DNA from: Acidovorax sp.
GTDB lineage: Bacteria; Pseudomonadota; Gammaproteobacteria; Burkholderiales; Burkholderiaceae_C
Direction: 5' to 3'
Assembly (NCBI GenBank): GCA_047601665.1
Contig: JASGIT010000001.1
Coordinates: 96,638-160,637, forward strand
DNA length: 64,000 bases
The position numbers and the translations under genes are program-made. Of this stretch, positions 2 to 56,456 are shown in pieces; positions within the stretch are counted from its first letter, which is position 1, and every line of letters starts with the position of its first letter. The notes under the pieces were generated by a model. It ran no database searches and was not told where the DNA came from. It was given only the letters and a program-made list of their open reading frames with translations.

Positions 2-769
2 CAGCCGCACCCCCTGGTTAAATTCCAGGCGATCAAGGAAAAGCCCTTCCAGACCGGGTTGATCCTGTATACGTTTTTCTATTACATCAGCAATGCGCTG
101 GGTTACCTGGTGTCGCGCCTGCTGGAGGGCGGGCTCGGTTATCCGGTCGAGAACACGGGGAATCTGGTCGGGTTTTCCGCCCTGGCGGCGCTGCCGCTGG
201 TGTTTCTCTATTTCAAGTATTCGCCCCTCATCGGCAACAAGAAATTCCTGATGATTCCGGGGTACATGATCACCATCCTGGTGTGCTTCTGGCTCTCGCG
301 GCTGCCGCCCGACGTCAGCACCAGCTGGCTGATCGGCCCGATGTTCCTGCGCGGCGCCCTGCTGCTCACCATGGCGCTGCCGGTCGGCGCGGCGGCCTTC
401 GGCATGTTCTCGGACGAGGAATACCACCACGGGTACCGCTTCAAGGGCATTTTGAAGCAGCTGACCTATTCGTTCTCCACGGCCACCATCATCATGCTCG
501 AACAGCACCGGGGCGCGCTGCACTATGCGCAGCTGGCCGAGGCGGTCACGCCGAGCAACCCGTCAGTGCAGCCCCTGCTCGACAGCATGACGGGCAGCTT
601 CATGGCCACCGGCCACAGCCTGGCCGAGGCCCATTCGCTGGCGCTGTTCAACATCTACGAAATGGTCGTCAAGCAGGCCAACCTGCTGAGCGTGCAGGAC
701 GGCTTCATCTACCTCGGCGCCATTGCCGTGGTGGCCGGCCTGTTCACCACCTGGCAACGGCATATCTGA
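2..769 (+). CDS. MFS transporter, EmrB/QacA (DHA2)-like, C-terminal part; 5' end lies outside the window
   Basis: The frame is open from nt 2 with no stop, ending at the stop at 767-769. It encodes multi-TM hydrophobic sequence resembling the last helices of 14-TM MFS exporters. Confidence 0.6.
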   Translation, partial: QPHPLVKFQAIKEKPFQTGLILYTFFYYISNALGYLVSRLLEGGLGYPVENTGNLVGFSALAALPLVFLYFKYSPLIGNKKFLMIPGYMITILVCFWLSRLPPDVSTSWLIGPMFLRGALLLTMALPVGAAAFGMFSDEEYHHGYRFKGILKQLTYSFSTATIIMLEQHRGALHYAQLAEAVTPSNPSVQPLLDSMTGSFMATGHSLAEAHSLALFNIYEMVVKQANLLSVQDGFIYLGAIAVVAGLFTTWQRHI

Positions 770-892
770 AGCACCCCCTGTGTCGCTTCGCTCCATCCCC
801 CTCGAGGGGGACGACGGCCTTTGCCGCGGGGCGGCCCTTGCTGGCCGTCCGCTGGCTTGGGCCGTGCCAGTTTTTGAGATGACGGAGCGTCG

Positions 893-2986
893 TCAGAAGC
901 GGTACGCGCCCGTCACCCCCAGCGTGGCGCTGCGGCCCGGCGCGGGCTCGAAGTAGCGCGCGTTGCCCTCGTTGACGATCACCGAGCCGATGTAGCGGCG
1001 GTTGAACAGGTTGTCCACGCGCACGAAGGCGTTGAACTCCCAGTGCTCCCACAGCTTGCGGTAGCCCGCGTGCAGCGCGGTCACGGCGTAGCCAGGGGCG
1101 CGGGCGGTGTTGGCGTCGTTGGCCTGGGTGTCCGCCAGGGCCGTCACTTCGACGCCCGCGCGCCAGCCCTGCGTCGGCATGTAGCCCGCGGCGGCGTAGA
1201 GCATTCGCGGCGCGATGCCGGGGATGCGGTTGCCTGCCGGCACCAGGCTGCCGCCGCCGCAAGGCGCGGGGGAGCAGAAGGCGTCGCGGTAGCGCGCGTT
1301 GATGGCGGTAAAGGCCAGCTGGGTGCGCCAGCCGCTCTGCGTTTCGTGCTGCCAGGCCAGTTCCGCGCCCTGGCGGCGCGTGCGGCCCGCGTTCTGGTAG
1401 GTGGAGCGGCCGCCGACGTTGGTGTTGGTGACGATCTCGTTGCCAGTGCCGGTCTGGAAGAGGGCCGCCGTCAGCAGCCCGCCGCCCACGCGGGCCTTGG
1501 CCCCCAGTTCCAGGCTGGTGTTGCTGGCCGCGCCCAGCGCCGTGTTCACGCCCGCGCCGGTGGTGCTGTAGGCCAGTTCATTGAGCGTGGGGGTCTCGTA
1601 GCCGCGCCCGGCCGCGGCGTAGAAGGCCAGGTCGCGCGTGGCCTGGTAGCGCAGCGCGGCAGTGGGCAGCCAGGCGCTGAAGCGGCGGTTCCAGCTGTCG
1701 TCGCCGTTGGAGCCGACGATGTAGTGGTCTTCGGAGTTGACCTTCACGCCGCTGCGGCGCAAGCCCGCCTCCAGCCGCCAGCGCTCGGCCACCTGCCATG
1801 CGGCCTGCACGTAGGGGTCGGCATTGCGCGCGGTGTTCTCCTCGTCGCGGCGCAGCGCGCCCTGCACGCCCAGGGTGGGGCCGATGAAGTTCTCGTAGCC
1901 GCGCCGGTGCTCGCGCAGGCCGTCGTAGGCCAGGCCCGCGGTCAACTCGAACGGGCGGCCCGCGAGTTGCGTCTGGCCGCTCCAGCGCAGGTCGAAGCCC
2001 GCGTACTGGCGGTTCAGGTCGATCACGCCGCCGGGGCTGAGGGGGTTGGCCTGGGTGCTGGCGGGAATGGACTGGAATTGCACCGTGCGCCGCTGGCCGC
2101 CGTAGGCCATCAGGCGCAGTTGCTGGCCGGCGTCGATGTGGTGCTCGTACAGCAGGCCGACCTGGCCCTGCTCCACGCTCTTGCGCGTGTCGTACTGCGT
2201 GGCGAGCGCGGCGCTGCGCGGGTCCTGGGCCACCTGCGCGGCGGTCAGGCCCATGGGGTCCTGCGCGTTGATGTGCACGTAGTTGGCGATCAGGCTCAGC
2301 TTGTCGCCGCCGCCCAGCGCCTGGGTGAGCTTGGCGTTGAACAGGTCGCGGTCGGCGGCGCCGTGGGCGCGCCAGCCGTCGGTGTGGAAGCTGCTGGCGC
2401 TGACGACGTAGCCCAGGTCGCCGCTGCTGCCGCTGAGTTCGACGCCGTTGCGCCGCGTGCCCCAGCTGCCGGTGGAGGAGGACGCCTCCAGCCGGGGCGG
2501 GCCGGAGCCGTCTTCGGTGAACACCTGCACCACGCCGCCCGAGGAGTTGCCGTACAGCGCCGAGAACGGGCCGCGCAGCACTTCCACGCGGTCGGCGGAG
2601 GCGATGTCGATGTTCGACGTCTGGCCCTGCCCGTCCGGCAGCGTGGCGGGAATGCCGTCCACGTACAGCCGCACGCCGCGCACGCCGAAGGTGGAGCGCG
2701 CGCCGAAGCCGCGCACGCTGAGTTGCAGGTCTTGCGCGTAGTTCTGCCGGTCGCGGATCTGCAGGCCGGGCACGCTGGCGAGGCTCTCGGACAGTTGCAC
2801 GCCGGGGCGGTCTTCGCGCATCCGGTCGCCATCCACGCGGTCGGCGGAACCCGCCGTGTCGAACAAAGGCTTGGCGCCGCCGGGGGTGGTCACCGTGACT
2901 TCGGGCAGCGCGGGGGTGGCGTCTTGCGCGTGGGCGGCCAAGGCGAGCAGCGCCGCGGCCACTGCCACGGCGGTTTTCTGGAACAT
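893..2986 (-). CDS. TonB-dependent outer-membrane receptor
   Basis: ATG at 2986 is preceded by GGAGA. Signal peptide MFQKTAVAVAAALLALAAHA. Plug motifs LQIRDRQNYAQDLQLSVRGFG and VEVLRGPFSALYGNSSGG. Terminal ...GAYRF. The listed 988-aa ORF is a spurious 5' extension across ligA. Confidence 0.9.
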   Translation of the reverse strand: MFQKTAVAVAAALLALAAHAQDATPALPEVTVTTPGGAKPLFDTAGSADRVDGDRMREDRPGVQLSESLASVPGLQIRDRQNYAQDLQLSVRGFGARSTFGVRGVRLYVDGIPATLPDGQGQTSNIDIASADRVEVLRGPFSALYGNSSGGVVQVFTEDGSGPPRLEASSSTGSWGTRRNGVELSGSSGDLGYVVSASSFHTDGWRAHGAADRDLFNAKLTQALGGGDKLSLIANYVHINAQDPMGLTAAQVAQDPRSAALATQYDTRKSVEQGQVGLLYEHHIDAGQQLRLMAYGGQRRTVQFQSIPASTQANPLSPGGVIDLNRQYAGFDLRWSGQTQLAGRPFELTAGLAYDGLREHRRGYENFIGPTLGVQGALRRDEENTARNADPYVQAAWQVAERWRLEAGLRRSGVKVNSEDHYIVGSNGDDSWNRRFSAWLPTAALRYQATRDLAFYAAAGRGYETPTLNELAYSTTGAGVNTALGAASNTSLELGAKARVGGGLLTAALFQTGTGNEIVTNTNVGGRSTYQNAGRTRRQGAELAWQHETQSGWRTQLAFTAINARYRDAFCSPAPCGGGSLVPAGNRIPGIAPRMLYAAAGYMPTQGWRAGVEVTALADTQANDANTARAPGYAVTALHAGYRKLWEHWEFNAFVRVDNLFNRRYIGSVIVNEGNARYFEPAPGRSATLGVTGAYRF

Positions 2987-3042
2987 GGGGTTTGTCTCCT
3001 TTTGGAACAGGCGGGGAATACCTGTTCTTTTGCAGGCAAGAG

Positions 3043-5601
<2,559 letters not shown>

Positions 5602-35370: not shown

Positions 35371-36978
35371 GGCCAATTCTGTTGAAAAACTCGCCTTGGA
35401 AGGCAGACTGGGTTCCCTGGTTCAGCACCAGCGAACGTCGCAATGAGTGTTGGGCATTGAGATCAGAAGGGGTTGCCCCCTTCCTGATCATCAAATCCCT
35501 TGCGTTGCCAGACCTTCCGCGGCGGGCATCAACCACTTCGCCGCAGATTCTGGGCCGTGGCCGCCATCAGGAACTCATCGCGTGCTCCGCTGAGGCCACG
35601 CAGTCTCAGACGATCAAGCTTCAGGATGCGTTTGAGATGGGCGAACAGCATCTCCACCTTCTTGCGATCGCGCCGGGACTGCTGGTACTCCGGTGTCTGG
35701 GCAATGGAACGTGCCACGTCACGCGCATTCTCGTGAATGCTGCGGGCGATCTTGCGGTGGGGCGTGTTGGGGCAGCAGCGCTCCTTGAGTGAACATGCCG
35801 CGCAGTCCATTTGGCTGGCCCGATAGATGACAGTATCGGCTTTGGTGATGTGGGTACGCGGATTCTTGAACTGGCGCCACTCGCTGCGCAGCGGGTGACC
35901 TTCGGGGCAGGTGTATTCGTTACGATCGGCGCTCCATTCAAAGTCGCTGATCGTCAGACTGCCATCCTTGCGGCCGGTCTTGTCCCACACTGGCACATGC
36001 GGCGCAATTCTCTTGTCCTCGACCATCCACGCGAGCATCGGTGCTGTGCCGTAGGCCGTATCTCCGACCAGGCAGCGTGGTTTGAGCTGGAATCGCTGCT
36101 CCACACGGTTGATCATCGTACGGGTGGAATCGACTTCTTCCGTCCGGTGCGCTGGCGTGGCCTCCACATCCACGATGATGCCTGCGGCCAAGTCAATCAG
36201 GTAGTTGGTCGAGTAGGCATAGAACGCAGGACCACCCGGTGCTGCAGTCCAGCGCGCAGCCGGATCGGTCAGAGAGATGTTCTTGGGCGGAACGCCCGGC
36301 CCCGAGCGCTCCGCAGGCGAGTCGTCTGCCACGGGGTTGTTCTCTTCAAGTCCAGCCAGGTACTCGCGAACCGCACGGCTGCATCCATTGCCCTTGCGCC
36401 AATCGATCTCTTCGTCGGAAACACCTCGTGCCCGGTTGGCATCGGCTTTGATGACGCTGGCGTCAATAGCGAAGCCTTCGCCGCGCACTAGTCCTTCAAC
36501 CATACAGCGGCGCAGCACCGTCTCGAAGACAAACGGAAAGCATCGCTCTGACGAAACCGGCCATGGCGGTTCTTGGAGAAGGTGGAGTGGTCAGGCACCC
36601 GGTCTTCCAAGCCCAGTCGGCAGAACCAGCGATAGGCCAGATTCAGATGAACCTCCTCGCACAACCGGCGCTCGGAGCGGATGCCGAAGCAATAGCCCAC
36701 GAGCAGCATGCGGATCATGAGCTCGGGGTCGATGGAGGGGCGGCCCGTGTGGCTGTAGAACGGGGCCAGATGCTGGCGCAGTGCGCCCAGATCCAGGAAC
36801 CGATCGACACCCCGCAGCAGGTGGTCGCGCGGAATGTGATCGGCCAGGTTGAATGCGTAGAAGAGCTGATCCTGGCTTGCCTTCTGTCCCATCATGGTGT
36901 GCGCCTCCGTCAGTGACGAAGGACTACCCACCGCTGATCCGGTTCCCGGACAAGGGGAGTTTTTCAACACAATAGGCC
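35371..36978 (-). mobile_element. IS1182-family insertion sequence, inactivated copy
   Basis: About 28-bp imperfect terminal inverted repeats: GGCCAATTCTGTTGAAAAACTCGCCTTG (35371-35398) against CAAGGGGAGTTTTTCAACACAATAGGCC (36951-36978). They enclose a split transposase gene. Confidence 0.8.
35529..36895 (-). pseudogene. IS1182-family transposase, frame-disrupted
   Basis: The N-terminal part (MMGQKASQDQLFYAFNL...NRHGRFRQSDAFR) and the DDE part (LRRCMVEGLV...EFLMAATAQNLRR) lie in different frames and join near 36500-36530. The C-terminus also seems shifted, since an ...AKWLMPAAEGL continuation lies in another frame. Confidence 0.75.
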
Positions 36979-37079
36979 ATGAGCTGTCCTTCCGGATGCT
37001 GCGGGTGGGACCGCTTCAGGCGGCGGATTCAACCGGTCGATGCAACACAATAACCACCCCTGGCGGAAGGAGTGCTTGC

Positions 37080-37460
37080 ATGAAGCAAAGGCCACGGATC
37101 TACTACACCGAGACGCAGAAGGCGCTGATGTGGGAGCGCTGGAAAGCTGACGATACCTTGCACCAGATCGGCAAGTTGTTCGATTGATCGCACATCTCCA
37201 TTCAGAACATCCTGGCAGCGACCGGCGGCATCCGCCCCCCCGCGCGCCATCGGTTTTGTCTGGCACTACCCCTGGCTGAGCGCAAGGAAGCCTCTCGGGC
37301 ATTGGCTGCGGGCGAGTCCATTCATTGCGTTGCGGCTCGTTTGGGCAGAGCCGCATCCACCGTCAGCCGCGAGCTTCACCGTAACGGGGGCAAGAGCTGC
37401 TACCGGACCGCGCGAGCCGAAGAGGTAGCATGGGAACGCGCGCACCGCCCCAAGCCATGC
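37080..37460 (+). pseudogene. IS30-family transposase, N-terminal fragment with an in-frame TGA
   Basis: MKQRPRIYYTETQKALMWERWKADDTLHQIGKLFD-stop-SHISIQNILAATGGIRP...STVSRELHRNGG...RPKPC. TGA at 37185-37187 sits where relatives have Arg. The fragment is truncated at about 37460 by IS66 sequence. Confidence 0.7.
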
Positions 37461-37783
37461 ACATCGACATGCTGTGGCTATGCTCCCAGCCGCAGGACAT
37501 GCGCGCCGGCGCTGACCGGTTGCTCAACATCGTCGGGATGGCGCGTGCGCACCACGACTACCTGTTTGCCAACCTGCGCACCACGCGCATCAAGCTGCTC
37601 GTGCACTACGGCTTCGGTATGTGGTGCGCCACGCGCCGTCTGCACGAGGGGCACTTCGTCTGGCTGGAGCGTGCGCCAGGGCAGGTTGCAACGCTGCAGC
37701 TCAGCACGCGGCCGTTCGAAGCCCTGACGGTCGGCCTGCCCTGGCAGCGCCTGGGCGAGTTCAGCGTCATCAGCCGGACGTGA
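37457..37783 (+). CDS. tnpB: IS66-family accessory protein TnpB, orphan second copy
   Basis: MHIDMLWLCSQPQDMRAGADRLL...TRIKLLVHYGFGMWCATRRLHEGHFVW aligns by eye along its length with the intact TnpB at 60338-60679. No tnpA lies upstream. Confidence 0.7.
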   Translation: MHIDMLWLCSQPQDMRAGADRLLNIVGMARAHHDYLFANLRTTRIKLLVHYGFGMWCATRRLHEGHFVWLERAPGQVATLQLSTRPFEALTVGLPWQRLGEFSVISRT

Positions 37784-37789
37784 GGATTA

Positions 37790-38050
37790 CCGGCAGCCCA
37801 GCGCCGCCGTTGACATCGCATCTGCCGATGCGCAGCGCCTGGCAACTCGTGCAATATGCCGAACATGCTCGGCGATACCGCTGCTTCCTCCATCGACATG
37901 GCGCAATTGCCGTCGGAGGCGGCCGCGTTGGTCACGCGGTTGCACCAGCAGGTGCAGGCCCAAGCACGGGAGATAGCTTGAGCGCTCGCCAAGCTCGAGA
38001 AGGTCACCCTCAAACTCGTGGAGTACGTTGCCTTCGCCGGATCTACGATT
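37790..38050 (+). pseudogene. IS66-family transposase TnpC, degenerate N-terminal remnant
   Basis: Reads ...LPSEAAALVTRLHQQVQAQAREIA-stop-ALAKLEKVTLKLVEY..., resembling the coiled-coil N-terminus of TnpC (compare 60748 onward). It has stops and no catalytic part. Confidence 0.55.
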
Positions 38051-38199: not shown

Positions 38200-38697
38200 C
38201 TACGCTGCGGCGACCGCCATCTCGATTCGTCGCATGGACATTGGCAAGGCCGCGTACACCGCCGAATGCAGGATCACAGATGAGGTGAAAGACGCGGCGT
38301 TAAAGCCGATCCAGGGATATGTGAACAGAGAGGAATCGACAAGCAAGGTCGCGACGCCTGGCATGACGGGGGCAGCGAAAGGCGGGATGGCTCCTGCCTC
38401 CAGTCCATCACTTGCCTCGTGTACCTCCTGCGCACTCGCGAAGCGGAAGGCGCCGAGCTCGCGCCGCACAGCGTTGCTGTCGAGTCTGTGCATGCCTGGC
38501 AGCACTAGTAGTACGAAGCTAGGCGTCTTGCGTGGCACCACGATCAGCGCCTTGGCACCCACCGCCTCGGGGTACCCGGCCTGGCTTCGTGCCGCGAGGC
38601 TCTCCGCTGAACTGCGACACGGGGGATGCTCGATCACTTGATGCGCCGCCCCTGTCTCTCGCAGAAAGCCGTGCAGGCGTAGTTGTGGTGCTTTCAT
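38200..38697 (-). CDS. YbaK/EbsC/ProX-type aminoacyl-tRNA trans-editing (deacylase) domain protein
   Basis: 165 aa from ATG 38697. Fold-typical blocks GAKALIVVPRK..FVLLVLPGMHRLDSNAVRRELG and IPPFAAP. Lies 11 nt downstream of the oxygenase stop. A GTG at 38742 is an alternative start. Confidence 0.65.
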   Translation of the reverse strand: MKAPQLRLHGFLRETGAAHQVIEHPPCRSSAESLAARSQAGYPEAVGAKALIVVPRKTPSFVLLVLPGMHRLDSNAVRRELGAFRFASAQEVHEASDGLEAGAIPPFAAPVMPGVATLLVDSSLFTYPWIGFNAASFTSSVILHSAVYAALPMSMRRIEMAVAAA

Positions 38698-38708
38698 GCC
38701 GGAAGAGC

Positions 38709-39665
38709 CTAGTTTTTGGGGGGCAGGGCATGGGACGGCCACAGCGACCGCATGGCTTTAGCGGCGTCGAAGCGATGGGACTCGCCCGGAGACGAAGCGA
38801 GTTTCCAGTGCAGACGAAGGTCCGAGTTGAAGTAGGCGCGCACAGCCGCGCGGTCGGCACTAGTAGTCGCTTCGCGTGCGTGGAGCCCATAGCGATTGGG
38901 CAGGACAAGCAACGTTCCAGGCTCAAGTGCTACCCATTGCATGCGGTCCATCGCTAATTCACGAAGGAATTCGATCACGGCATGACCCAGGCGATCATTC
39001 GGATCAGCCGGGCGGACTGCATAAGTCGCCAGAGCAATGCGCGGCACGACATTGCGTTCGCCGTGAACCAGGGGAACGGGGCCAATCCAGACTTCGCCCA
39101 GACCCAGGCTCAGCGGCGCACGCAGCAACCACTTCTTCGAGCGCGCGTGCTGTTCGAAGGCGCGTGGAGCGCCTTCGAACAGCTCTAAACCGCGCACCCA
39201 GCCGGTACGCACGCCAGAGACATTTTTCAGCCCGCTGAGCACAATGTCCTCCGGGGACAGAGGACCGAGAGCGCTGTCGTCAGCATGCGGCAGGAACTCC
39301 CCGGGTGTCGCATTGGTGTTGTCAGGCGCGCCAGCCTTCGGCTCCAGAAGCTGGAAGAGCCCGCCCTGCGAAACCCAGTTCCATGGCGAGCCGCGGCGCG
39401 CGATTGCGGCCACCGCGGCAAGAACGAGAGCCGCTTGCTGGTAGTCGGCATCATCGGGAATCGGCAGGCCGCTGACCAACGTTGCGTCATCCTTCGCCAT
39501 CAGGCGCAGCTCATGGATCGCGGAGTCGAAGGGAAGCAAGGGCACGGCGAGATTGCTGGCCAGGTGAATATCGTGTTCGGAATTGATCCGGACGGTCTGG
39601 CGTGCCAAGTCGAGGGCGTGCGACAGTTGGTCGCGGCTCTTGGGCGAGAGAGAGATGCGTTGCAT
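38709..39665 (-). CDS. clavaminate-synthase-like / TauD-superfamily Fe(II)/2-oxoglutarate oxygenase (amino-acid hydroxylase-like)
   Basis: 318 aa. AAGGAG lies 7 nt upstream of ATG 39665. Candidate facial triad H-x-D in EFLPHADDS plus a distal His and Arg in NRYGLHAREA. The layout resembles VioC/AsnO-type hydroxylases. Confidence 0.6.
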   Translation of the reverse strand: MQRISLSPKSRDQLSHALDLARQTVRINSEHDIHLASNLAVPLLPFDSAIHELRLMAKDDATLVSGLPIPDDADYQQAALVLAAVAAIARRGSPWNWVSQGGLFQLLEPKAGAPDNTNATPGEFLPHADDSALGPLSPEDIVLSGLKNVSGVRTGWVRGLELFEGAPRAFEQHARSKKWLLRAPLSLGLGEVWIGPVPLVHGERNVVPRIALATYAVRPADPNDRLGHAVIEFLRELAMDRMQWVALEPGTLLVLPNRYGLHAREATTSADRAAVRAYFNSDLRLHWKLASSPGESHRFDAAKAMRSLWPSHALPPKN

Positions 39666-39902
39666 GGTCTAGCTCCTTTTCGTATGAGGTCCGTTGAGGT
39701 GGCGGGTGCAAAGGATGCGCACCGCATACAAGAAGAATCGCAAAAGCATCTCTCCATAGCCAGCGCTGTTTGGGGTAGCGATGGCGATCGGGACGCGACG
39801 ACTCCCTAGTGGCGCGAGCGGAAAAATCAGGTTGCGACGAGAATCCCTAGCGGCTGGGGACTGTGGTTCGTCTCCGTGCCGCCTACGACCAGGAGGAACC
39901 CA

Positions 39903-42900
39903 GTGGCCGCCGGTACGAACAGAAGCAGTCCCTACAGCCAAGCTGAGATTGAGGCTCTTTGGGCTGCGCTCGTCGAGGATGCGCGCAGCCCCAAAAAGCA
40001 GCATGAGTTGCTGGAAACGCTGAAAATAAAACGCAGCCTTTCCAGCCTTATCGATCGCAAGATCGGGCTTGGCGTGCAATTGCGTTGGAACCTGGCGATG
40101 CTGATCCTGACGGGCCGCGCCGGTCCAGCACCCAGCGAGGGAAAGGCATTGCTTGTGAAAGAGGTCAGGAAGCTCCTGGAGCTCACGACTGACTTCTTTC
40201 AGCTCAATCACGCAAATAGTGGCAGCAAGAAGGACGATAAGTCTGCGCTCCAGACGCGCATGGCAACCCTTCTTGTCGCGGCGCGCGACATTGCGGCCCT
40301 CGAGCGGCTCTGCGGGGTGCTGGCCAAGCGCTTCAGGGACGCCTACTTAGAAGCGCTGGGCGTTGATCAACTAACTGCGAACCAATTCCTCAGCCCCGTC
40401 TTTGGTCCGCAAGCGGTGCAGACCTTCATCCACCTGCTATGTACCGGGCATCTTCCGCTTGAGGTGCACACAACCCTGGTTTCGCAGGTCGACTACATCC
40501 CCAGCGACGAAAGAGACCACGAGTTCATGGTCCTTCTGGCACGGCTCGCTGGGCCGACCGATCGCCCCATCCAGGGGATCGCGATGCCGGGCTCCCCTAG
40601 CGGCCAGTGCGCAGTGGCACATGAGCTGGTGCGACGCCTGCAGGCGCCTGGCTCGGCAGGCGACTCGGACGCGCGGCCGATTGTCATGCTGCCCTGCGGT
40701 CGCCAGTACCGCAATCCGCACCATTGCGGCTTGGACTTTCTAGTGCAGAACCTGCTTTCGTTCTACGAGCGCCGGGAATTGCGCCATGACGTGCCCTCAC
40801 TCAGCGCCGACGAAATGCAAGGCGCGATCAAGGCGCTTCGCCAGCATCTTTGCCGCCGACCCATCATCGTCGTGCTGGTGGGCTATGAAGTAGTGCGTGG
40901 CTGTCAGCCGGCCTTGCGCCGCGCCATCCGCGACGAACCCTTGGCCCAGTTGCTGCCTCTCGTGATCCATCCCGGGGTCGGCAGTCTTGAGCTTCCGACT
41001 GCAGCCGCGACGTTTCAGAAGACAAGATGGATCATCTTCTCCGATGGCGAATTGGACTTGCTGGAGCCCTACTGCTCCAAGACCATCTGGATGCCGCCGC
41101 CCCCACCTGAAGCCGAAGAGAAAATCTTCAGCATGTTTACCAAGGAGCATCGGCATATCGCGCAGTTGCGCGAGATTTCCGCCTTATCTCCATTGCCGCT
41201 CTCCGAAGCCAAAGCCTGCACCGCATTGCAGATGATGGAGCTGAAGCAGTTTCGGGGGCCGCCTTTTGCGGGTGCATACGACGGCAGTGAACTTGGAAAC
41301 GGCATTCTGGCTCGTTTTGCCGAGGTTGTGCGCACTTGTGCTCCTCCCTTGGAGGCCGCCGCACTTCACCTGATTGCATTGGCCGGTGCCGGGCTTCGCC
41401 ATACCACGCTGTGGCAGTGCCTGCATGCATGGCGCCTCATCCCTCGCCCAACCGGCACGTTACCTTGTCCCGCACTACCTGAGGTCGAGGAGGCGGTGGC
41501 ATGGATGGACGAACTGCTGGATAACTACCAACGCGTGATCTACGACGGTATTGATGAGAGTGAGCCCAGTCTGAATCCACTGGACCATCCTTTCGAGTAT
41601 GTTGGTCATAGTGCCGCCTGCAATATGCAGGCGGAGTTGAAAAAGAACGACGCGCTCAAGAAGCAGGCTGCTTTCGTCCACAGATCGCTCGATTTTCGCT
41701 TCGTCGAAGTGCGAGAAGCGCTCACCGAGGACATGCGATTGCATGGTCCTTCCTGGTATGTGCAATCTCTCCACCGTGTATTGGCAAATGAAGCATTGCG
41801 GCAACACGCGCTGCTTGTGCGTCATGAGGCACCACAGTACCGCACGGCTCTGCGCGACGAGAGACGCGCACTCGAAGGGCTGTACCACGGTCTGCTGGCC
41901 CTTCCTGAGGTGGATACGTTACCGGAGACGACGCCGGAGCCCTGCCTTGCACATGCGGCTCCGGCCAGCGGCCTTCCGGGGGATTCCGTCGCTGCGTTTC
42001 AGTTCTTGCGCCGGGTGGTCTTTGGCAATCTTCTCGAGCGCAAGGACCAGTACCGTCTAAGCCGCCGCTGGGCTGCGGATGACATCAAGCTGGATGTCCT
42101 GGAGCTGATTCACTTGGCTTTCGCCACTACAGCGGATCGAGGGGCCGGGTTGAGCTTGCACCCCCTGTGGCACGCGAGGGGCCTGGTTCCCGATGCTGTG
42201 CTGACCTTGCGGCAGCACTGCGAGAGCATTGCCGTTGCTGCCTATGGCGCCAATGACATGGTGCGTTGGAACGACTTCACTGCCGGAGTTGGTGGGATGC
42301 ATGAGCTGACCGGGGACATTCCACTGCTGAAGCGTGTGGCCTTTGACATGTCGATGATCAGTCATGGTCCTGGCGCCGATCGAACCATCAGCATGGTCAT
42401 CCCCCCTCTTGAGGAGATGGGAGTCAAGGCCGAATCCTTCACCCGGGCGCCGTGGCGCAACGGCCGTCAGACTGGACTGGTCGTTCCTGACCCCAAGGAA
42501 CTGGAGACCTTTCTGGCCGACTGTCTATCGAATGCCTGCCACTCTCCACCTGCGCAATGGACGTCGTTGTCGGACTGGTTTGTCCGCCTGGGCGAGCTTC
42601 GCTACCAGCAGGCGCAAGCGAAAGGCGCGCGAGAGACCGTCCGTTGGCAACTTACCATGGAGTGCTTCGTGCAGGCGCAGATCGCCACGCGCTTGCGGAT
42701 GACTACATTGAATCACGAAGGGCTCTCAGGCAGTTCGCATCTTTCTGCAAGAGGCATCCGTCTGCTGGCCCGTGCAGCCCTGGATCTTCTGCGTTATCTG
42801 ATAAATGTTCGTGCCGATGCGGCAGCCGGGTTGGCCCCCACGCTGCGCGAATACCTTGTGGCTCAAGCCCGCCAGGCTCTCGACGCCTATGCCCTAAGCC

Positions 42901-43352
42901 GGGGCTACAACGAGCCGGATTGCGCGGGCATGCTTATCCTCGAGTCTCGATTTGCGCGGGTGGCTGGGCGAGAGGGCCCGCATCGCCACAGACGCCACCG
43001 CATTGCACTCGATTTTCTCCATGAAGCAGAAGGCCGCCTTTCGGGCATGCGCACGCGACACCGCTTGTGGCTGCACCTGCTTATCGAGCACTGCGCCACT
43101 TTGCGTGGCCTCGCCGCCGAAGCCATGGAGGAGCCTAAGTGGCCTGGCGAGCGCCGCATGGAAGTCGCGCGTCGCCTGTTGGGCTTGGCCCTGGCAGACG
43201 TCCGCCAACTGGAAAATATCATTGAAGCAGCCTACCCTGCGCAGCACACACGCGACGACTCGCGACGAGCCCTTTCAAAGTCTTGGCGGGACGCTGTAGA
43301 TCATCAGCGCAAACTGACGCATGAGCTGATCAAGAAGCTCCCTGCCGGATGA
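39903..43352 (+). CDS. large orphan protein (~1149 aa), possible degenerate STAND/P-loop-like core with a long helical-repeat C-terminus
   Basis: GTG 39903 lies 6 nt after a perfect AGGAGG; the listed ORF start at 39876 is in frame. Walker-A-like GIAMPGSPSGQCAVAHEL lacks the GK[ST]. Walker-B-like RRPIIVVLVGYE lacks an acidic pair. The C-terminal ~600 aa are Leu/Ala/Arg-rich amphipathic helices. No TM helix or signal peptide. Confidence 0.6.
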   Translation: MAAGTNRSSPYSQAEIEALWAALVEDARSPKKQHELLETLKIKRSLSSLIDRKIGLGVQLRWNLAMLILTGRAGPAPSEGKALLVKEVRKLLELTTDFFQLNHANSGSKKDDKSALQTRMATLLVAARDIAALERLCGVLAKRFRDAYLEALGVDQLTANQFLSPVFGPQAVQTFIHLLCTGHLPLEVHTTLVSQVDYIPSDERDHEFMVLLARLAGPTDRPIQGIAMPGSPSGQCAVAHELVRRLQAPGSAGDSDARPIVMLPCGRQYRNPHHCGLDFLVQNLLSFYERRELRHDVPSLSADEMQGAIKALRQHLCRRPIIVVLVGYEVVRGCQPALRRAIRDEPLAQLLPLVIHPGVGSLELPTAAATFQKTRWIIFSDGELDLLEPYCSKTIWMPPPPPEAEEKIFSMFTKEHRHIAQLREISALSPLPLSEAKACTALQMMELKQFRGPPFAGAYDGSELGNGILARFAEVVRTCAPPLEAAALHLIALAGAGLRHTTLWQCLHAWRLIPRPTGTLPCPALPEVEEAVAWMDELLDNYQRVIYDGIDESEPSLNPLDHPFEYVGHSAACNMQAELKKNDALKKQAAFVHRSLDFRFVEVREALTEDMRLHGPSWYVQSLHRVLANEALRQHALLVRHEAPQYRTALRDERRALEGLYHGLLALPEVDTLPETTPEPCLAHAAPASGLPGDSVAAFQFLRRVVFGNLLERKDQYRLSRRWAADDIKLDVLELIHLAFATTADRGAGLSLHPLWHARGLVPDAVLTLRQHCESIAVAAYGANDMVRWNDFTAGVGGMHELTGDIPLLKRVAFDMSMISHGPGADRTISMVIPPLEEMGVKAESFTRAPWRNGRQTGLVVPDPKELETFLADCLSNACHSPPAQWTSLSDWFVRLGELRYQQAQAKGARETVRWQLTMECFVQAQIATRLRMTTLNHEGLSGSSHLSARGIRLLARAALDLLRYLINVRADAAAGLAPTLREYLVAQARQALDAYALSRGYNEPDCAGMLILESRFARVAGREGPHRHRRHRIALDFLHEAEGRLSGMRTRHRLWLHLLIEHCATLRGLAAEAMEEPKWPGERRMEVARRLLGLALADVRQLENIIEAAYPAQHTRDDSRRALSKSWRDAVDHQRKLTHELIKKLPAG

Positions 43353-46337: not shown

Positions 46338-47198
46338 CCGCTCTTAGAGCGTGTTTACGATCTCTTTCCCGACAATCCTTGTGTGAAGAGAAAGCAGTAC
46401 CCAAGCGACATCAGTCGAGAGAAGTTTGCCGAGATCGAGCCGCTGCTGCGCAGCGTTCGGCGCAGCACCAAACCGATCAAGCAGGATCTGTACGAGGTGT
46501 TCTGTGCAGTGCTGTACCTGCTTCGCACGGGTTGTCAGTGGCGCTATCTGCCGCCGCAGTTCCCCAAGTGGCACAACGTCTATGCGTACTGGCGCAAGTG
46601 GAGCGAACCTGACCAGCACGGAGTGAGCGTGCTGGAGCAGGCTTTAAAAAAATCAGGTTGGCGCGGCCCGAGAGAGACTGGGGCGCAACGCTTGCAGCGC
46701 GTTCTTGATCGTGGACGCGCAGAGCGTGAAGAACACGGACACGGCAGGGTTTAAGGGCTATGACGCAGGCAAGAAAGTCTCGGGCATCAAGCGACACATC
46801 GCGGTGGACACCCAGGGGCTACCCCATGCAGTGGTGGTAACCACAGCCGAAGTGACTGATCGCAAAGGAGCGCTTGCGGCATTCAAGCGCTGCAAGCAGT
46901 CGTTGGGGCAGGTGCAAAGCGTGCTGACGGACAGCGGCTACACAGGCGAGCCCTTCGCGCAGGGCCTCAAGGACATCCTGGGTGAGCATGTGACGGTGCA
47001 GATTGCCAAGCGAAGCGAACTGCACGCCTTCAAGGTCATGCCCAAGCGCTGGATCGTCGAGCGCAGCTTTGCCTGGCTGGAGAAGAATCGCAGGCTGTGG
47101 AAGAACTGCGAGCGTTGGCTCAACACCAGCTTGCAGTTCGTCCACTTGGCGTTTCTGGCTCTGCTGCTCAGGAGATCGTAAACACGCTCTTAGAGCGG
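46338..47198 (+). mobile_element. IS5-family insertion sequence (861 bp), structurally complete
   Basis: 27-bp terminal inverted repeats with 1 mismatch: CCGCTCTTAGAGCGTGTTTACGATCTC (46338-46364) against GAGATCGTAAACACGCTCTTAGAGCGG (47172-47198). They enclose a two-frame transposase. No clear target duplication seen. Confidence 0.85.
46383..47181 (+). CDS. IS5-family transposase in two overlapping frames (46383-46754 and 46648-47181) bridged at an A7 run
   Basis: OrfA reads MKRKQYPSDISREKFAEIEPLL...YWRKW. OrfB reads ...IVDAQSVKNTD...DSGYTGEPF...WIVERSFAWLEKNRRLWKNCE (DDE). The A7 run is at 46646-46652. OrfB is in the +1 frame relative to OrfA. Confidence 0.8.
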
Positions 47199-52163: not shown

Positions 52164-55100
52164 TCAAGTAGGAGAGCTGAGGAATGACAGGATGACGTCG
52201 AACGCTTTGCCACGATCACGACCAATCAGTAGATCCTGATGGCCGATTCGTTCGAAAACCTGTGGAGGGGACATCTTTGTCAGCTGTTTATCTCTTTTCC
52301 ACTCCATCAACATCTGCGCGTTCGCGCCGGTATCGGCCAGCCCGTTGGTACGCCCGTGCAGGCTTAGCATGCGTACGCCTGTCAGCAGATGCCAAGGGTC
52401 TTCACCGAACACACTTAGACCTGTTTGCTCGGCAGGTTCGCCGTACTTTGCAAAGTAAATGGGCTGCGAAATGGTCGCCAGGTTCAGCGGACCGAAGAAG
52501 TCGTCAATGCAAGCAAGCACTTCCTCGTCCATCGTGCGCGAATCGAAAGTGCGGCCAATCAGCGCATCCAGCCGGCGGCGCGTGCCAACCCATGGTCGGC
52601 GAAGCCACGGAAGTCGAGGGTTCTCGATGTCGAATTCAGACCCGTCCTCATCATCTAGGTACGGTAGCGTCGCGATGAGGCGGTCGTACAGCGTAGCGTC
52701 GACTCGACCGACGCGCTCCCCGGGGCGCAGGCTGTAGTGGAAGTCCGGCAACAGGTGGCGGAACCAGCTCAGCAGGTACGCACGCAGCAGGTTGGCCGGA
52801 GCGAAGCGCATCTTTGTGCCAAATTGCGACATCACCCAGCAGCGCATGCGTGCGGCCGTCGCTGCGGCGTGCGGCTGGCCTTGGTCGCTCAGCGTCATCG
52901 TCAGCATAACGGACCCCATGCAGTGCGAGACTACGTCCACCTGCGGCATACCGGTCCGTGCGCAGACCTCGCGCAGCGCGGCCGGAATGTCATGGCGTGC
53001 GATCTCCTCAAAGCTGTAGGCGTGATCGGCGGTCGGCATCCCGCAGCTCGTCCGCATGTCAAGCACCCAGGGTTCGCGGCCGTGGCGCCACAGATACTCC
53101 GCAAGGCTGGGCCGCAGCGCGGGATGCGCGAAGGTCGTTCCGCTGGCGCTGTAGCCGTGGATCATAAGCACCGGGGGGTGAAGAGCTTTGGCCACGGGAT
53201 AGCGTGTCAGCCGGATCTCGCCGGCCGACGATCCGTCGGGTACGAACTCGAAGATCTCGGGCTCGGGTAGGCCGGGCAAAGCGCCAGGCAGGCGTTGGGC
53301 CGCCCGTACCGTGCGCGCCTGGTCAGGCTTTCGGCCACTCCACAAGTGGACGCTGACGAACACGCGAAGCACATAGAGCGTGAATGCCAGGACGTCGATC
53401 AGTGCCGCCGGCTGGTTTTCCTGCCCGACCACCCTTATCAGTGGTATCTGTCTGCGGGCGAAGTAATCAAGGCTGACGTCGATACTGCGCCTGGCGCCCA
53501 GCTGCAATCCGCCGAATGCTGCCAGCTTCATCCGCGTCAGCTGAGTCCAAGGGTTGGCGCGCCGATCGTAGGTAAAGCGCTTGCCGCCTTTCAGCACGAG
53601 GCCGTGCTGGCCGACCAGTTTTGCGAAGCGGCGTGTCGCTTCCTGCAAGCGCTGAGCATCGTCCTTGAACTTTGGATCGAAGGGCGGGATCAGTGGCGCT
53701 CCCAGCTTAAGGTCGTAATCGAAGAGTCGCACCTCGCCGGCACGTGTAGCCAGCGCCAGCGACTGGCAAAAGCGATCCCTCACCGAGAAGGCCGTGGCGC
53801 TCTTTCGACCCTGGATCTTGTCGAGCGCGACGTCGATCAACGCGAGGACGCTATCACGCAAGCCGCGGTTCCACAGCCAAGCGGTCCATGCGCGGCATCG
53901 GCGCAGCTTCCACGTCGACGACTCGCGATGCAGGAAGCGCAGTGTGCTGCCCGCGGCTAGGGGCACCCTGAGCATAGGCGGGTCGGATTCCAGATCTTCG
54001 GACATGTAGTCGCCGACCTTCCATCGGTACAGGCGGACCTCGCTGAGCGTGTCGTCAACGGCGACCTGCAGAACGTGCCCCTGCTGCGTGAAAGCTGGGC
54101 GGCTACCATCGTCGGGCGTTGGACCGGGAAATAGCGCACGCGGCTCGTAGACAAGCGAGAGTTGCATCCACGCAGGCTCACCGTCGAGGTCGACCGGCCC
54201 GGATAGCTTCTCGATCACCTGCACCTCGGTGCGTCGGGGAATCGGCCTGCCATTGCGCTGCGCGAAGACAGGACGCGGCACGGATAGCGGAACCTTTGGC
54301 GACGCTGGTCGGGTGAGCGCCCAGTGCACGTCAATCAAGCGTTCGATGGCGAGGTCCGCGAGCGTCGAAATGGTCAGTGCCGGGTTGATGCCGATCGACC
54401 CAGGAACGATGGCGCCGTCCAGCACCACAAGGCCTTCGTGGACTGCCGTCAACTTCGCCTCAGCCGCTCCGTCAAAGACACGTCCGTCCCGGTCGACCAC
54501 GCCGTGACTGCGGTCGTCCGCCATGCAGCACCCGCCAAGTGGGTGGACACTGACCAACGGACCGCGTTCAGCGCCGAGGGTCTTTTCGGCTCCGGGCGGC
54601 AGGAGCTTCCACACAGGATTGGGAATCAGTCTGTCAGATGCCCCCAGCATCTCTGCAAAAGCCTTATGAGCCTGGTCGAAGCGTTCGTCGTTGCGCAGCC
54701 TGCGCCAGTCGATGCGCACCCCGGCATCGAGCGGAAGTTCGTGGTCCTGCGGAGCTGCCGTCATGACGCCGTCGGCGCCGTCGCGAGCAATCAGCGCGAC
54801 CACCTGCGAACGCTCGATCTGCCCTGGATCGACAGCAAGCGGGTCGGGTGCGCTTGCCGCCCCTGGGTCGTCGTGAGCGAGGTGGACGTCGAGATCGGGC
54901 TCGTCAAGCTTGTGCAACAGCAAGGCCGTGGTCACGCCCTCCTCAAGCAGCCGCACGAGCGCGCCTGGCACGGCGAGGTCCTGCACGACGAAGCCCCCGC
55001 CGGCGTTGCGCTTGTCGATCATGGTCGTGATGGTCGGCCCAACCTGGCGCGCGGCCGGCGCCACCACCTCATCCGCCACTCCGTGGAACACGCGCTGCTG

Positions 55101-56132
55101 CGATGCCACGGTCGCGACTAGGTCGCCATTAGCCGAGAAGCGACGGCCGAGCGCGGGCGAAAACGACAAGCCCGACTCCTGGGAGCGCATCAACAGCTCA
55201 GTGGAACCAAGGGTGCCCGCAGCCAGCACCACGCGCCTGGCCGACAGCACGACCGGCCCCGCCATGCGCTTGCGTAGTGCCACATCGGTGTGCCAGACCT
55301 CCACCTCCCATTTGTCGGTGTCGCGCCTCAAACGGGTCACCGTTGCACCGGAGAAGATCTCTACACCGCGTACCTGGGCGCGACGCAACAGGCCGAGGTC
55401 CAGCGAGATTTTGGAGCCGTGGTTGCAGCCGGTGGCGCAGTCGCCGCAGGCAATGCAGCAATTCATCTTGACTCCGCCCACGCTCTGCAGGTTCTCGTCG
55501 AGCGCTACGGTAATCGGCACTGTGGCGGCACCGAGGGCTTTCATCGATCCTACGCGCCTTAGCGAATGACGCACCGTGTCCTTCGCATTAGGGTCAGCGC
55601 CAAGCTCGGCTTGAAGGCCTTCAGCGCGCTGAGCCAGCGTCAGGCCTTGATTTAACAAGCCGACCGGCCACATCGACTCCTGGAAAATCGCCGGTTCTGG
55701 AAATGCCATCACCCCGGCGTTGATCAAAGACCCGCCTCCAACGCCGTTGCCCACCAGCACCGACACGTCCGTGCCAATGCGTATGTCGAACAAGCCTTCG
55801 AGACGGCCACTCGCTTTGTCGCCCTGGGGCGTCGTAAAACGCACATGACCGGCGAGGTCGGCCGCACGATCGGGAAAAGAGCCCGTCAGGTGCTCGCGAC
55901 CGCGTTCCAGCACCGCGATGCTCAATGGCCCCTGCGTATCCGAGGTGCCAGCGAGCCGGTCGGCCGCGATGGCCCCGCCGTAGCCAGACCCGATGACCAG
56001 CACGTCGAAGTCGGGTCGCCCCGAACGCTGCGTGCGACGCGCGTCCAAACCTTGGATCAAAGTCTCGAAGCCGTGGGACACCCAGCTGGTGCGGCGACTG
56101 TTTGTCTGCGGCGACTGGCCGTTGCTCTGCAT
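52164..56132 (-). CDS. 1322-aa fusion protein: N-terminal GMC (cholesterol-oxidase-like) FAD oxidoreductase, central region of unknown function, C-terminal alpha/beta-hydrolase fold
   Basis: ATG 56132 lies 7 nt after GGAGGG. FAD fingerprint DVLVIGSGYGGAIAADRL, then GNGVGGGSLINAG and C-x2-C-x2-C-x3-C (NCCIACGDCATGC). GMC C-terminal block VHPLGGCCMADD...LVVLDGAIVPGSIGINPALTI. Hydrolase part PPVLMIHGYSASGTTF...VDVVSHCMGSVML. Confidence 0.75.
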   Translation of the reverse strand: MQSNGQSPQTNSRRTSWVSHGFETLIQGLDARRTQRSGRPDFDVLVIGSGYGGAIAADRLAGTSDTQGPLSIAVLERGREHLTGSFPDRAADLAGHVRFTTPQGDKASGRLEGLFDIRIGTDVSVLVGNGVGGGSLINAGVMAFPEPAIFQESMWPVGLLNQGLTLAQRAEGLQAELGADPNAKDTVRHSLRRVGSMKALGAATVPITVALDENLQSVGGVKMNCCIACGDCATGCNHGSKISLDLGLLRRAQVRGVEIFSGATVTRLRRDTDKWEVEVWHTDVALRKRMAGPVVLSARRVVLAAGTLGSTELLMRSQESGLSFSPALGRRFSANGDLVATVASQQRVFHGVADEVVAPAARQVGPTITTMIDKRNAGGGFVVQDLAVPGALVRLLEEGVTTALLLHKLDEPDLDVHLAHDDPGAASAPDPLAVDPGQIERSQVVALIARDGADGVMTAAPQDHELPLDAGVRIDWRRLRNDERFDQAHKAFAEMLGASDRLIPNPVWKLLPPGAEKTLGAERGPLVSVHPLGGCCMADDRSHGVVDRDGRVFDGAAEAKLTAVHEGLVVLDGAIVPGSIGINPALTISTLADLAIERLIDVHWALTRPASPKVPLSVPRPVFAQRNGRPIPRRTEVQVIEKLSGPVDLDGEPAWMQLSLVYEPRALFPGPTPDDGSRPAFTQQGHVLQVAVDDTLSEVRLYRWKVGDYMSEDLESDPPMLRVPLAAGSTLRFLHRESSTWKLRRCRAWTAWLWNRGLRDSVLALIDVALDKIQGRKSATAFSVRDRFCQSLALATRAGEVRLFDYDLKLGAPLIPPFDPKFKDDAQRLQEATRRFAKLVGQHGLVLKGGKRFTYDRRANPWTQLTRMKLAAFGGLQLGARRSIDVSLDYFARRQIPLIRVVGQENQPAALIDVLAFTLYVLRVFVSVHLWSGRKPDQARTVRAAQRLPGALPGLPEPEIFEFVPDGSSAGEIRLTRYPVAKALHPPVLMIHGYSASGTTFAHPALRPSLAEYLWRHGREPWVLDMRTSCGMPTADHAYSFEEIARHDIPAALREVCARTGMPQVDVVSHCMGSVMLTMTLSDQGQPHAAATAARMRCWVMSQFGTKMRFAPANLLRAYLLSWFRHLLPDFHYSLRPGERVGRVDATLYDRLIATLPYLDDEDGSEFDIENPRLPWLRRPWVGTRRRLDALIGRTFDSRTMDEEVLACIDDFFGPLNLATISQPIYFAKYGEPAEQTGLSVFGEDPWHLLTGVRMLSLHGRTNGLADTGANAQMLMEWKRDKQLTKMSPPQVFERIGHQDLLIGRDRGKAFDVILSFLSSPT

Positions 56133-56456
56133 TCGTGGTCCCTCCGTCAAGTCATCCGTCGTAGGCGTTTGCGGGTGGCAGCTTAAGTGAACCATCTGAC
56201 TTTGCAATAGGCCGATGGTTTAGAGCGGATGATCCAGCGTTGTGAGCATTCTTCGCTCCTAAAGCGAGCTGGGCAACTCCCGATGCTGTTAAGCGGCGTG
56301 GAGGCAATGACGGCATCGGGGCAGCTAGCCGCCCACGCGGCATGGGCCTAAACCACCGTGATAACACGTCAGACCAATTGAAACCAAACGCCGCGTTACT
56401 GACACTTCGAGTACCCGCAGGCCACTCGGCCGCCACCGCCCAACACAAGGGAAAAC

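Follow-up and report, generated by a model that had tools for sequence, protein, structure and literature searches.

What is achieved by placing a predicted amino acid hydroxylase directly upstream of a likewise predicted stand-alone aminoacyl-tRNA deacylase in a two-gene unit that appears to travel on mobile elements? The question is raised by a gene pair in a metagenome-assembled genome (MAG) of Acidovorax sp., located in a stretch of 64,000 nucleotides of contig JASGIT010000001.1 (positions 96,638 to 160,637; assembly GCA_047601665.1), the whole of which is hereinafter referred to as the window. The first gene of the pair encodes a 318-aa Fe(II)/2-oxoglutarate (2OG) oxygenase of the clavaminate synthase-like (CSL) type, and the second encodes a 165-aa protein of the INS superfamily of tRNA-editing domains. 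We consider it moderately probable that the two proteins, the products of one operon, act in sequence, the first hydroxylating a free amino acid and the second proofreading the tRNA that becomes mischarged with the product. Specifically, the oxygenase would hold the alpha-carboxylate and the alpha-amine of a free L-amino acid and, using Fe(II), 2OG and O2, would hydroxylate the side chain, which is probably non-basic, most likely at C-beta. The resulting hydroxy-amino acid would resemble its parent closely enough for an aminoacyl-tRNA synthetase to charge tRNA with the analogue, and the co-translated deacylase, which resembles ProXp-ST1, would hydrolyze the mischarged tRNA and keep the analogue out of the host proteins. 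An initial annotation of this DNA had proposed that the editing domain protects translation from a hydroxylated amino acid made by the oxygenase, and this is still the best-supported reading, by analogy with the experimental precedents discussed below (PMC13149037).

Organization and conservation of the gene pair

Both open reading frames (ORFs) are found at the coordinates given in the initial annotation, on the minus strand, 11 nt apart and behind an AAGGAG motif (Table 1). There is no obvious Shine-Dalgarno sequence for the deacylase gene in the 11-nt spacer, and translational coupling of the two genes is likely. The ATG starts of both genes agree with the N-termini of the homologues, which disfavors the GTG at 38742 as an alternative, upstream start of the deacylase. 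In the 210-bp region that separates the pair from the divergently transcribed neighboring gene, neither a sigma-70 consensus nor an Rfam match was detected. A search of the window region and 11 homologous loci against Rfam likewise identified no riboswitch or other element hinting at the substrate, and promoter and terminator scans were uninformative.

The oxygenase gene is followed by the deacylase gene, in the same order and on the same strand, in 14 distinct loci, which were gathered by looking up gene contexts, by scanning metagenomes and GTDB, and from a plasmid collection. In addition to the window, these comprise an Acetobacteraceae MAG (L002/L032), a contig with a Rep3 replication gene (L010), a locus adjoining genes for ArdC, DUF2958 and ParB (L014), the cyanobacterial plasmid pGM3709_01 of Geminocystis (L029), the contig that carries P0006, and loci L001, L005, L015, L016, L017, L018, L060 and L065. 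The two genes overlap by 4 nt (ATGA) in 6 of the 14 loci (L001, L002, L005, L010, L015 and L060), and are separated by a small ORF in two. The single close homologue of the window oxygenase (52% identity) is followed, with a 4-nt overlap, by a deacylase that is 55% identical to the window protein, and the pairing is retained down to approximately 23% identity between the oxygenases. Among nine loci, the pairwise identities of the oxygenases and of the deacylases are correlated (Mantel r 0.63, p 0.001), and each protein of a pair has the same nearest neighbor. A neighbor-joining tree, for which no support values were computed, groups nine paired deacylases in a clade free of unpaired members, with the remaining paired deacylases scattered near the base among unpaired relatives. 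The adjacency is far beyond chance and the two proteins co-diversify; the co-occurrence that the initial annotation had suggested looking for across genomes is real and is not a peculiarity of this Acidovorax genome.

These observations bear on the simplest alternative, namely that the adjacency is meaningless and the deacylase is a housekeeping, YeaK-like Ser-/Thr-tRNA proofreader that hitch-hikes with an unrelated oxygenase. Related deacylases do occur without an oxygenase partner, at unremarkable chromosomal sites in Acidobacteriota, Planctomycetota and candidate phyla, as this explanation would require, but the preservation of gene order, strand and overlap across the 14 loci, over the entire range of oxygenase divergence, together with the co-diversification, renders it very improbable.

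Both families are very rare. A word-indexed search of 5.8 billion proteins with the single oxygenase sequence retrieved two proteins, that is, one besides that of the window itself, and the same type of search with a 50-sequence oxygenase profile retrieved three. When 1.84 billion representatives were searched exhaustively with a profile, 149 clusters were obtained at E<=1e-3, seven of them at E<=1e-30, and a search of the GTDB species representatives with alignment A1 gave no match. Among the 28 loci with relatives of the deacylase that were recovered from 185,579 GTDB species representatives, the pair is present in one.

The oxygenase: fold, conserved residues and predicted substrate

The window oxygenase matched the Pfam family TauD (PF02668) at its C-terminus only (E 0.0018, 18.7 bits; gathering score 27), and a sequence search of the PDB with this single query produced no match. 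TauD matches were obtained for 41 of the 50 members of its family (E<0.01), and the profile of the 50 sequences retrieved AsnO at E 1.6e-34, along with NapI, VioC, CmnC, KDO1, OrfP and CAS. The AlphaFold2 (AF2) model of the window protein (predicted local distance difference test score, pLDDT, 95.7; predicted template modeling score, pTM, 0.93) was matched by Foldseek to KDO1, AsnO and VioC (E 4e-22, TM 0.77-0.81). As modeled, the protein is a CSL-type jelly-roll (double-stranded beta-helix) of the amino acid hydroxylase type and represents a divergent subfamily.

The two motifs that the initial annotation singled out as a candidate triad fit this assignment: LPHADDS carries H127 and D129, and GLHAREA carries H262. 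Each of these three columns is at least 90% conserved in the 50-sequence alignment, and H262 aligns with H287 of AsnO in the profile alignment; together they make up a candidate iron triad. The classification of the 318-aa protein as a CSL/TauD-like oxygenase is thus borne out by the family profile, the modeled fold, the Foldseek matches and the triad columns. Further conserved columns are T154 and R272 (at least 90%) and R276, which is invariant among the 50 sequences; R272 and R276 align with the DRWLQR motif of AsnO.

The conserved residues were mapped through the profile alignment with AsnO, and roles were taken from a published analysis of CSL active sites (PMC6224419). In that analysis, the P18 Arg binds 2OG and the P19 Arg, four residues further on, binds the alpha-carboxylate of the substrate across all CSL groups; the P6 Asn contacts the substrate carboxylate, the P2 Gln or Glu contacts the alpha-amine, and an Arg at P3 correlates with attack at C4 (PMC6224419). 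By this mapping, R272 corresponds to P18 and is the predicted 2OG-binding Arg, whereas R276 corresponds to P19 and is predicted to bind the substrate carboxylate. N118, the counterpart of AsnO N146, occupies P6 and Q100 occupies P2, both being conserved, and the residue at P3 is not Arg. The window protein lacks the acidic DXXD pocket that Arg and Lys hydroxylases have, with P184-L185-S186...A213 found where AsnO has PPS...D241. Judging from these positions, the enzyme probably hydroxylates C-beta of a free L-amino acid whose side chain is non-basic.

The head-group residues also bear on a second possibility raised in the initial annotation, that the oxygenase acts on an aminoacyl-tRNA or, more generally, hydroxylates an aminoacyl moiety carried on tRNA or another carrier, whereupon the deacylase would free the product. 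Some TauD-like hydroxylases do act on carrier-bound amino acids, and for the window oxygenase the adjacency to a tRNA-acting enzyme is the sole observation that points in this direction. An ester-linked substrate has no free carboxylate, and the retention of the residues predicted to bind a free carboxylate and amine, namely the invariant R276 together with N118 and Q100, therefore disfavors it. Moreover, the oxygenase is a single 318-aa CSL domain with no RNA-binding or carrier-docking addition. We regard a carrier-bound substrate as extremely improbable.

In three relatives of the oxygenase (P0025, P0026 and P0027), the Asp of the HxD motif has been lost and, in one of them, the distal His is missing as well; these are probably catalytically dead paralogues.

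The deacylase: an INS-superfamily protein resembling YeaK/ProXp-ST1

The 165-aa protein matched the Pfam family tRNA_edit (PF04073) at E 3.9e-16 (59.7 bits vs a cut-off of 25.5) and, on this sequence evidence, belongs to the INS/tRNA_edit fold family. Against the YbaK_EbsC equivalog model TIGR00011, it scored 13.4 bits vs a cut-off of 153, which rules out YbaK sensu stricto, the Cys-tRNAPro deacylase. Of the YbaK-type label that it originally received, the fold can be retained and the strict YbaK identity cannot. The two outcomes that had been named in advance as speaking against the proposal, a fold outside the jelly-roll for the oxygenase or outside the YbaK fold for the deacylase, were both not observed.

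The PDB entries related to the deacylase subfamily are 3op6, 1wdv, 1vki, 5vxb, 2cx5 and 2dxa. In an alignment of 18 sequences of the subfamily, K49 and the G102-x-x-P105-P106-F107 loop are invariant, and HPPCR[ST]S is the signature motif. The Lys aligns with that of 3op6, 1wdv, 1vki and YeaK. Roles for the catalytic-site Lys and the Gly-x-x-x-Pro loop of INS domains are known from YbaK and ProXp-ala. When the bit scores of the subfamily profile were compared at equal database size, the Escherichia coli YeaK/ProXp-ST1 scored highest (86 bits, E 2e-23), followed by 3op6 (60 bits), APE2540 (1wdv; 43 bits), ProXp-ala (33 bits) and ProXp-x (2cx5; 31 bits), with YbaK (2dxa; 23 bits) being the weakest of the INS relatives compared. 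An hhalign comparison with YeaK gave a probability of 99.3% at 30-33% identity, and the window subfamily and YeaK share the motifs GAKAL, G-x-IPPF and FNAG. By these sequence comparisons, the deacylase appears nearest to YeaK/ProXp-ST1 among the INS families compared, a resemblance rather than proven membership. The E. coli YeaK gene is a chromosomal housekeeping gene without an oxygenase partner, whereas the window subfamily is distinguished by its HPPCR[ST]S signature and by carriage on mobile elements.

ProXp-ST1 and ProXp-ST2 hydrolyze Ser- and Thr-tRNAs, and the fluorothreonyl-tRNA deacylase FthB is related to ProXp-ST1 (PMC11295145). Because the ProXp-ST1 branch acts on Ser- and Thr-tRNAs, and so recognizes beta-hydroxy amino acids, it is the branch from which the partner of a beta-hydroxylase would be expected to come.

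A related stand-alone deacylase, 36% identical to the window protein, is encoded on plasmid pCSC3H3 of Thalassospira marina (locus L031; NZ_CP024200.1 597529-597996), where it shares an operon with genes for threo-3-hydroxy-L-aspartate ammonia-lyase, an asparaginase, RidA and a dicarboxylate/amino-acid symporter. The arrangement appears to be another, catabolic connection of this deacylase group to a beta-hydroxy amino acid.

The Thalassospira operon is also one of the observations in favor of a different division of labor, in which the pair would provide two layers of resistance: the oxygenase would inactivate or degrade an imported toxic analogue, and the deacylase would clear tRNA charged with that substrate, not with the product. 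The distribution of the cassette on plasmids, in conjugative regions and in islands rich in insertion sequences (IS), without biosynthetic, export or regulatory partners, is typical of resistance genes. A precedent exists in CtdA, a deacylase of a different fold (B3/B4-type) that functions in a catabolic context, against an exogenous plant toxin. Like the window deacylase, CtdA stands alone and is encoded with enzymes for a toxic non-proteinogenic amino acid; it is described as a canavanyl-tRNA deacylase encoded together with canavanine catabolism (PMC10018355, PMC12449066). However, by structure and by sequence, the window oxygenase is closest to biosynthetic hydroxylases that act on proteinogenic amino acids, hydroxylation alone rarely detoxifies amino acids, and no catabolic follow-up enzyme is conserved beside the pair. 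The affinity of the deacylase to ProXp-ST1 suits a hydroxylated tRNA substrate, that is, the product, at least equally well. On balance, we consider the resistance explanation unlikely.

Comparison with known hydroxylase/deacylase systems

The initial annotation could not place the pairing among described modules. The general arrangement of a hydroxylase with a stand-alone deacylase has now been published, in a study showing that stand-alone deacylases mark pathways of non-canonical amino acids (ncAAs), for which only the AlaX family was mined (Millar et al., Nat Chem, April 2026, PMC13149037). The main text of that study does not mention YbaK or ProX-type proteins. Two systems from that study are close analogues of the window pair. 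AlfC and AlfB of Alcaligenes faecalis resemble the pair, by description, in combining an Fe(II)/2OG enzyme with a neighboring stand-alone deacylase in a small cluster of a beta-proteobacterium; AlfC beta-hydroxylates free Met, and AlfB prefers the hydroxy-aminoacyl-tRNA (PMC13149037). AlfB is, however, from the AlaX family, whereas the window deacylase belongs to the INS/ProXp family, and the Alf cluster, conserved in 134 genomes, comprises four genes, a regulator gene and a transporter gene among them, in contrast to the two genes of the extremely rare and mobile window pair. In Microbispora fusca, the VioC-like, CSL-type FuzA, which beta-hydroxylates a free amino acid, is likewise co-localized with a deacylase, FuzB; FuzA is an Arg 3R-hydroxylase, and FuzB is proposed to clear hydroxy-Arg-tRNA (PMC13149037). 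FuzB again belongs to the AlaX family, hydroxy-Arg is an intermediate in a seven-enzyme pathway to a hydrazide tripeptide, which sets this system apart from the window pair, and the window oxygenase is devoid of the acidic DXXD pocket for basic side chains.

On the deacylase side, the closest parallel is FthB of Streptomyces cattleya, which is reported to deacylate fluorothreonyl-tRNA and to protect the producer of 4-fluorothreonine (McMurry & Chang 2017). Like the window deacylase, FthB is a stand-alone, ProXp-ST1-related member of the INS superfamily that is encoded beside genes making a threonine-like ncAA, but its partner chemistry is fluorination and transaldolation, within a larger fluorometabolite cluster, and not 2OG-dependent hydroxylation. 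FthB was not among the plasmid-collection matches at E<=1e-8, so that a close relation to the window deacylase is not shown. On the oxygenase side, AsnO, VioC and KDO1 share with the window protein the fold, the His-x-Asp/Glu...His triad, the P18/P19 Arg pair and the head-group residues; they differ from it in overall sequence (17-20% identity) and in the side-chain pocket, and AsnO has HxE at the alignment position where the window protein has HxD. These enzymes come from nonribosomal peptide synthetase (NRPS) antibiotic pathways or from enzyme mining, and a deacylase partner accompanies none of them. Thus, the principle is already known, and what differs here is the ProXp-ST1-like deacylase, the divergent CSL subfamily, the bare two-gene unit and the mobile carriage.

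Several observations weigh against sequential hydroxylation and proofreading. Taken alone, the window oxygenase stays below the Pfam gathering score for TauD; its residues were assigned by profile alignment, not by superposed structure; and the prediction of the substrate from the pocket residues reached only "not basic". Many relatives of the deacylase are unpaired and occur in unrelated contexts in the phyla mentioned above, among others, and for the oxygenase homologue of locus L013 the 332 nt of downstream sequence contain no deacylase gene, although this contig, as well as those of L062 and L064, is too short to decide whether the deacylase is missing. Finally, Pfam scans of the window revealed nothing like the exporter, regulator or downstream tailoring genes of the Alf and Fuz clusters, so that no use for the product is evident. 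A transporter or regulator, common although not obligatory in ncAA clusters marked by a deacylase, does not directly adjoin the window pair, and a small membrane protein is encoded as a third gene in L005 and L014 only.

Genomic context and mobility

The pair resides in a region of approximately 0.60-0.63 G+C that begins next to a kdp operon (kdpABCD) of 0.70 G+C. The IS remnants listed in Table 1 constitute an IS graveyard at the edge of this low-G+C island, beside kdpD/E. Because the IS elements on the two sides differ in type, a composite transposon was rejected. The initial annotation spoke of a mobile cassette: mobility is a reasonable assumption in view of the lower G+C content and the IS5, IS30 and IS66 debris, although no intact boundaries of a cassette were found around the pair. 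Several of the homologous pairs lie in plasmid or conjugative contexts, namely the Rep3 contig, the ArdC/ParB region and the cyanobacterial plasmid. Pfam scans of the tested ORFs, extending approximately 10-17 kb to either side of the pair, identified neither NRPS nor any other recognizable biosynthetic gene, in agreement with what had been noted at the outset.

Table 1. Features of the window (coordinates in nucleotides from its first position)
Feature	Coordinates	Strand	Remarks
CSL-type Fe(II)/2OG oxygenase, predicted free L-amino acid hydroxylase	38709..39665	-	318 aa; ATG start, TAG stop
Stand-alone INS-superfamily aminoacyl-tRNA deacylase (predicted), ProXp-ST1/YeaK-like	38200..38697	-	165 aa; ATG start
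Intergenic spacer	38698..38708	-	11 nt, between oxygenase TAG and deacylase ATG
Shine-Dalgarno AAGGAG	39673..39678	-	7 nt 5' of the oxygenase ATG; direct reading of the sequence
Divergent intergenic region	39666..39875	.	210 bp, separating the oxygenase operon from the 1158-aa gene; presumed to hold promoters
1158-aa protein, no assigned function	39876..43352	+	divergent from the pair; possible accessory partner
IS5-family element	35371..36978	-	28-nt inverted repeats; split (frameshifted) transposase
IS30 helix-turn-helix and IS66 TnpB fragments	37000-37800
Small IS	46338-47198		861 bp; 27-nt inverted repeats
GMC-oxidoreductase/hydrolase fusion	52164-56207	-	1347-aa ORF; GMC-oxidoreductase domains and an alpha/beta-hydrolase domain

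Carriage by phages was dropped: the GenBank phage collection contained no match to either protein, and a scan of viral contigs with a pattern from the deacylase alignment detected no relative. A known anti-phage defense system was also rejected: the PADLOC-DB 2.0 models matched neither protein of the pair nor the 1158-aa protein, and PHROGs returned nothing useful.

These searches are relevant to another view of the mobile carriage, in which the pair would be a poison/antidote device of a mobile element. The oxygenase would make a mistranslation-inducing analogue from an abundant host amino acid and the deacylase would be the antidote, serving plasmid addiction, allelopathy against neighbors or abortive infection, with the protein of approximately 1,100 aa perhaps sensing or regulating in some loci. 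The chemistry would be the same as in the favored mechanism, and the biological purpose alone would differ. In support of such a role, the unit is a tight two-gene cassette that recurs in the three plasmid or conjugative settings named above and in IS islands, it brings along no exporter or tailoring genes, the large protein without an assigned function recurs beside the pair in three loci that span two oxygenase subclades, and a nucleosidase-like protein with a PNP_UDP_1 domain (630 aa) is encoded near the pair in L002. Conversely, the PADLOC models and the phage and viral-contig searches are null, the large protein is missing from most of the paired loci, and neither toxin-antitoxin hallmarks nor differential stability is known. 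We consider this purpose rather improbable.

Other genes beside the pair

No third gene is universal among the paired loci. A possible accessory partner is the 1158-aa protein encoded divergently from the pair in the window. Full-length homologues of this protein are encoded near the oxygenase in the Acetobacteraceae MAG L002/L032 (E 2e-15; L032 13428-16859, minus strand) and in L013 (16-2916, minus strand), and in none of the other fetched loci. The window gene and its L013 homologue are both divergent from and adjacent to the oxygenase gene, with spacers of 210 bp and 207 bp, respectively. A family of approximately 970-1160 aa thus adjoins the oxygenase in the three loci. The 1158-aa protein has no match in Pfam, NCBIfam, PADLOC, PHROGs, the PDB or the plasmid collection and contains no Walker A motif. 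Its single-sequence AF2 model (pLDDT 39) is unusable as a structure; going by this low-confidence model, the family is probably mostly helical.

In L005 (1625-2050, plus strand) and L014 (3904-4434, plus strand), the third gene encodes a small Gly/Ala-rich membrane protein with weak similarity to DUF697. The two proteins are 35% identical; in L005, the start of the gene overlaps the deacylase stop by 4 nt, and in L014 the gap is approximately 30 nt. This protein, which may serve as an exporter or a membrane partner, has no counterpart in the window.

The pair in L002 is flanked by the gene for the 630-aa protein (168-2060, plus strand), in which the PNP_UDP_1 domain, similar to methylthioadenosine/S-adenosylhomocysteine nucleosidases, occupies the C-terminal half, and by a gene for a 449-aa protein with FGE-sulfatase and cold-shock domains (2643-3992, minus strand); by its composition, this neighborhood may be a defense island. 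In L015, a second oxygenase-like gene (2076-2282, plus strand) starts just 3' of the deacylase and is present as an N-terminal fragment at the contig end. In L064, an ORF directly after the oxygenase homologue (1697-1858, plus strand), also at a contig end, resembles by eye a fragment of a group II intron reverse transcriptase.

The island in the window further contains the 1347-aa ORF of Table 1, an unusual domain fusion, which follows a gene for a PhoD-like phosphatase; a hybrid histidine kinase and a LuxR-type response regulator are encoded nearby.

Implications

If sequential hydroxylation and proofreading is indeed the function of the pair, the rule that stand-alone deacylases mark ncAA metabolism would extend from AlaX to the ProXp-ST1-like branch of the INS superfamily. 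The oxygenases would define a new, very rare subfamily of CSL hydroxylases that would be of interest for biocatalysis, and the two small soluble proteins make the pair a compact experimental system. It would also follow that a hydroxylase/deacylase unit can move as a bare two-gene cassette on plasmids and islands, and one would have to ask what advantage the making of a mistranslatable amino acid brings to a mobile element.

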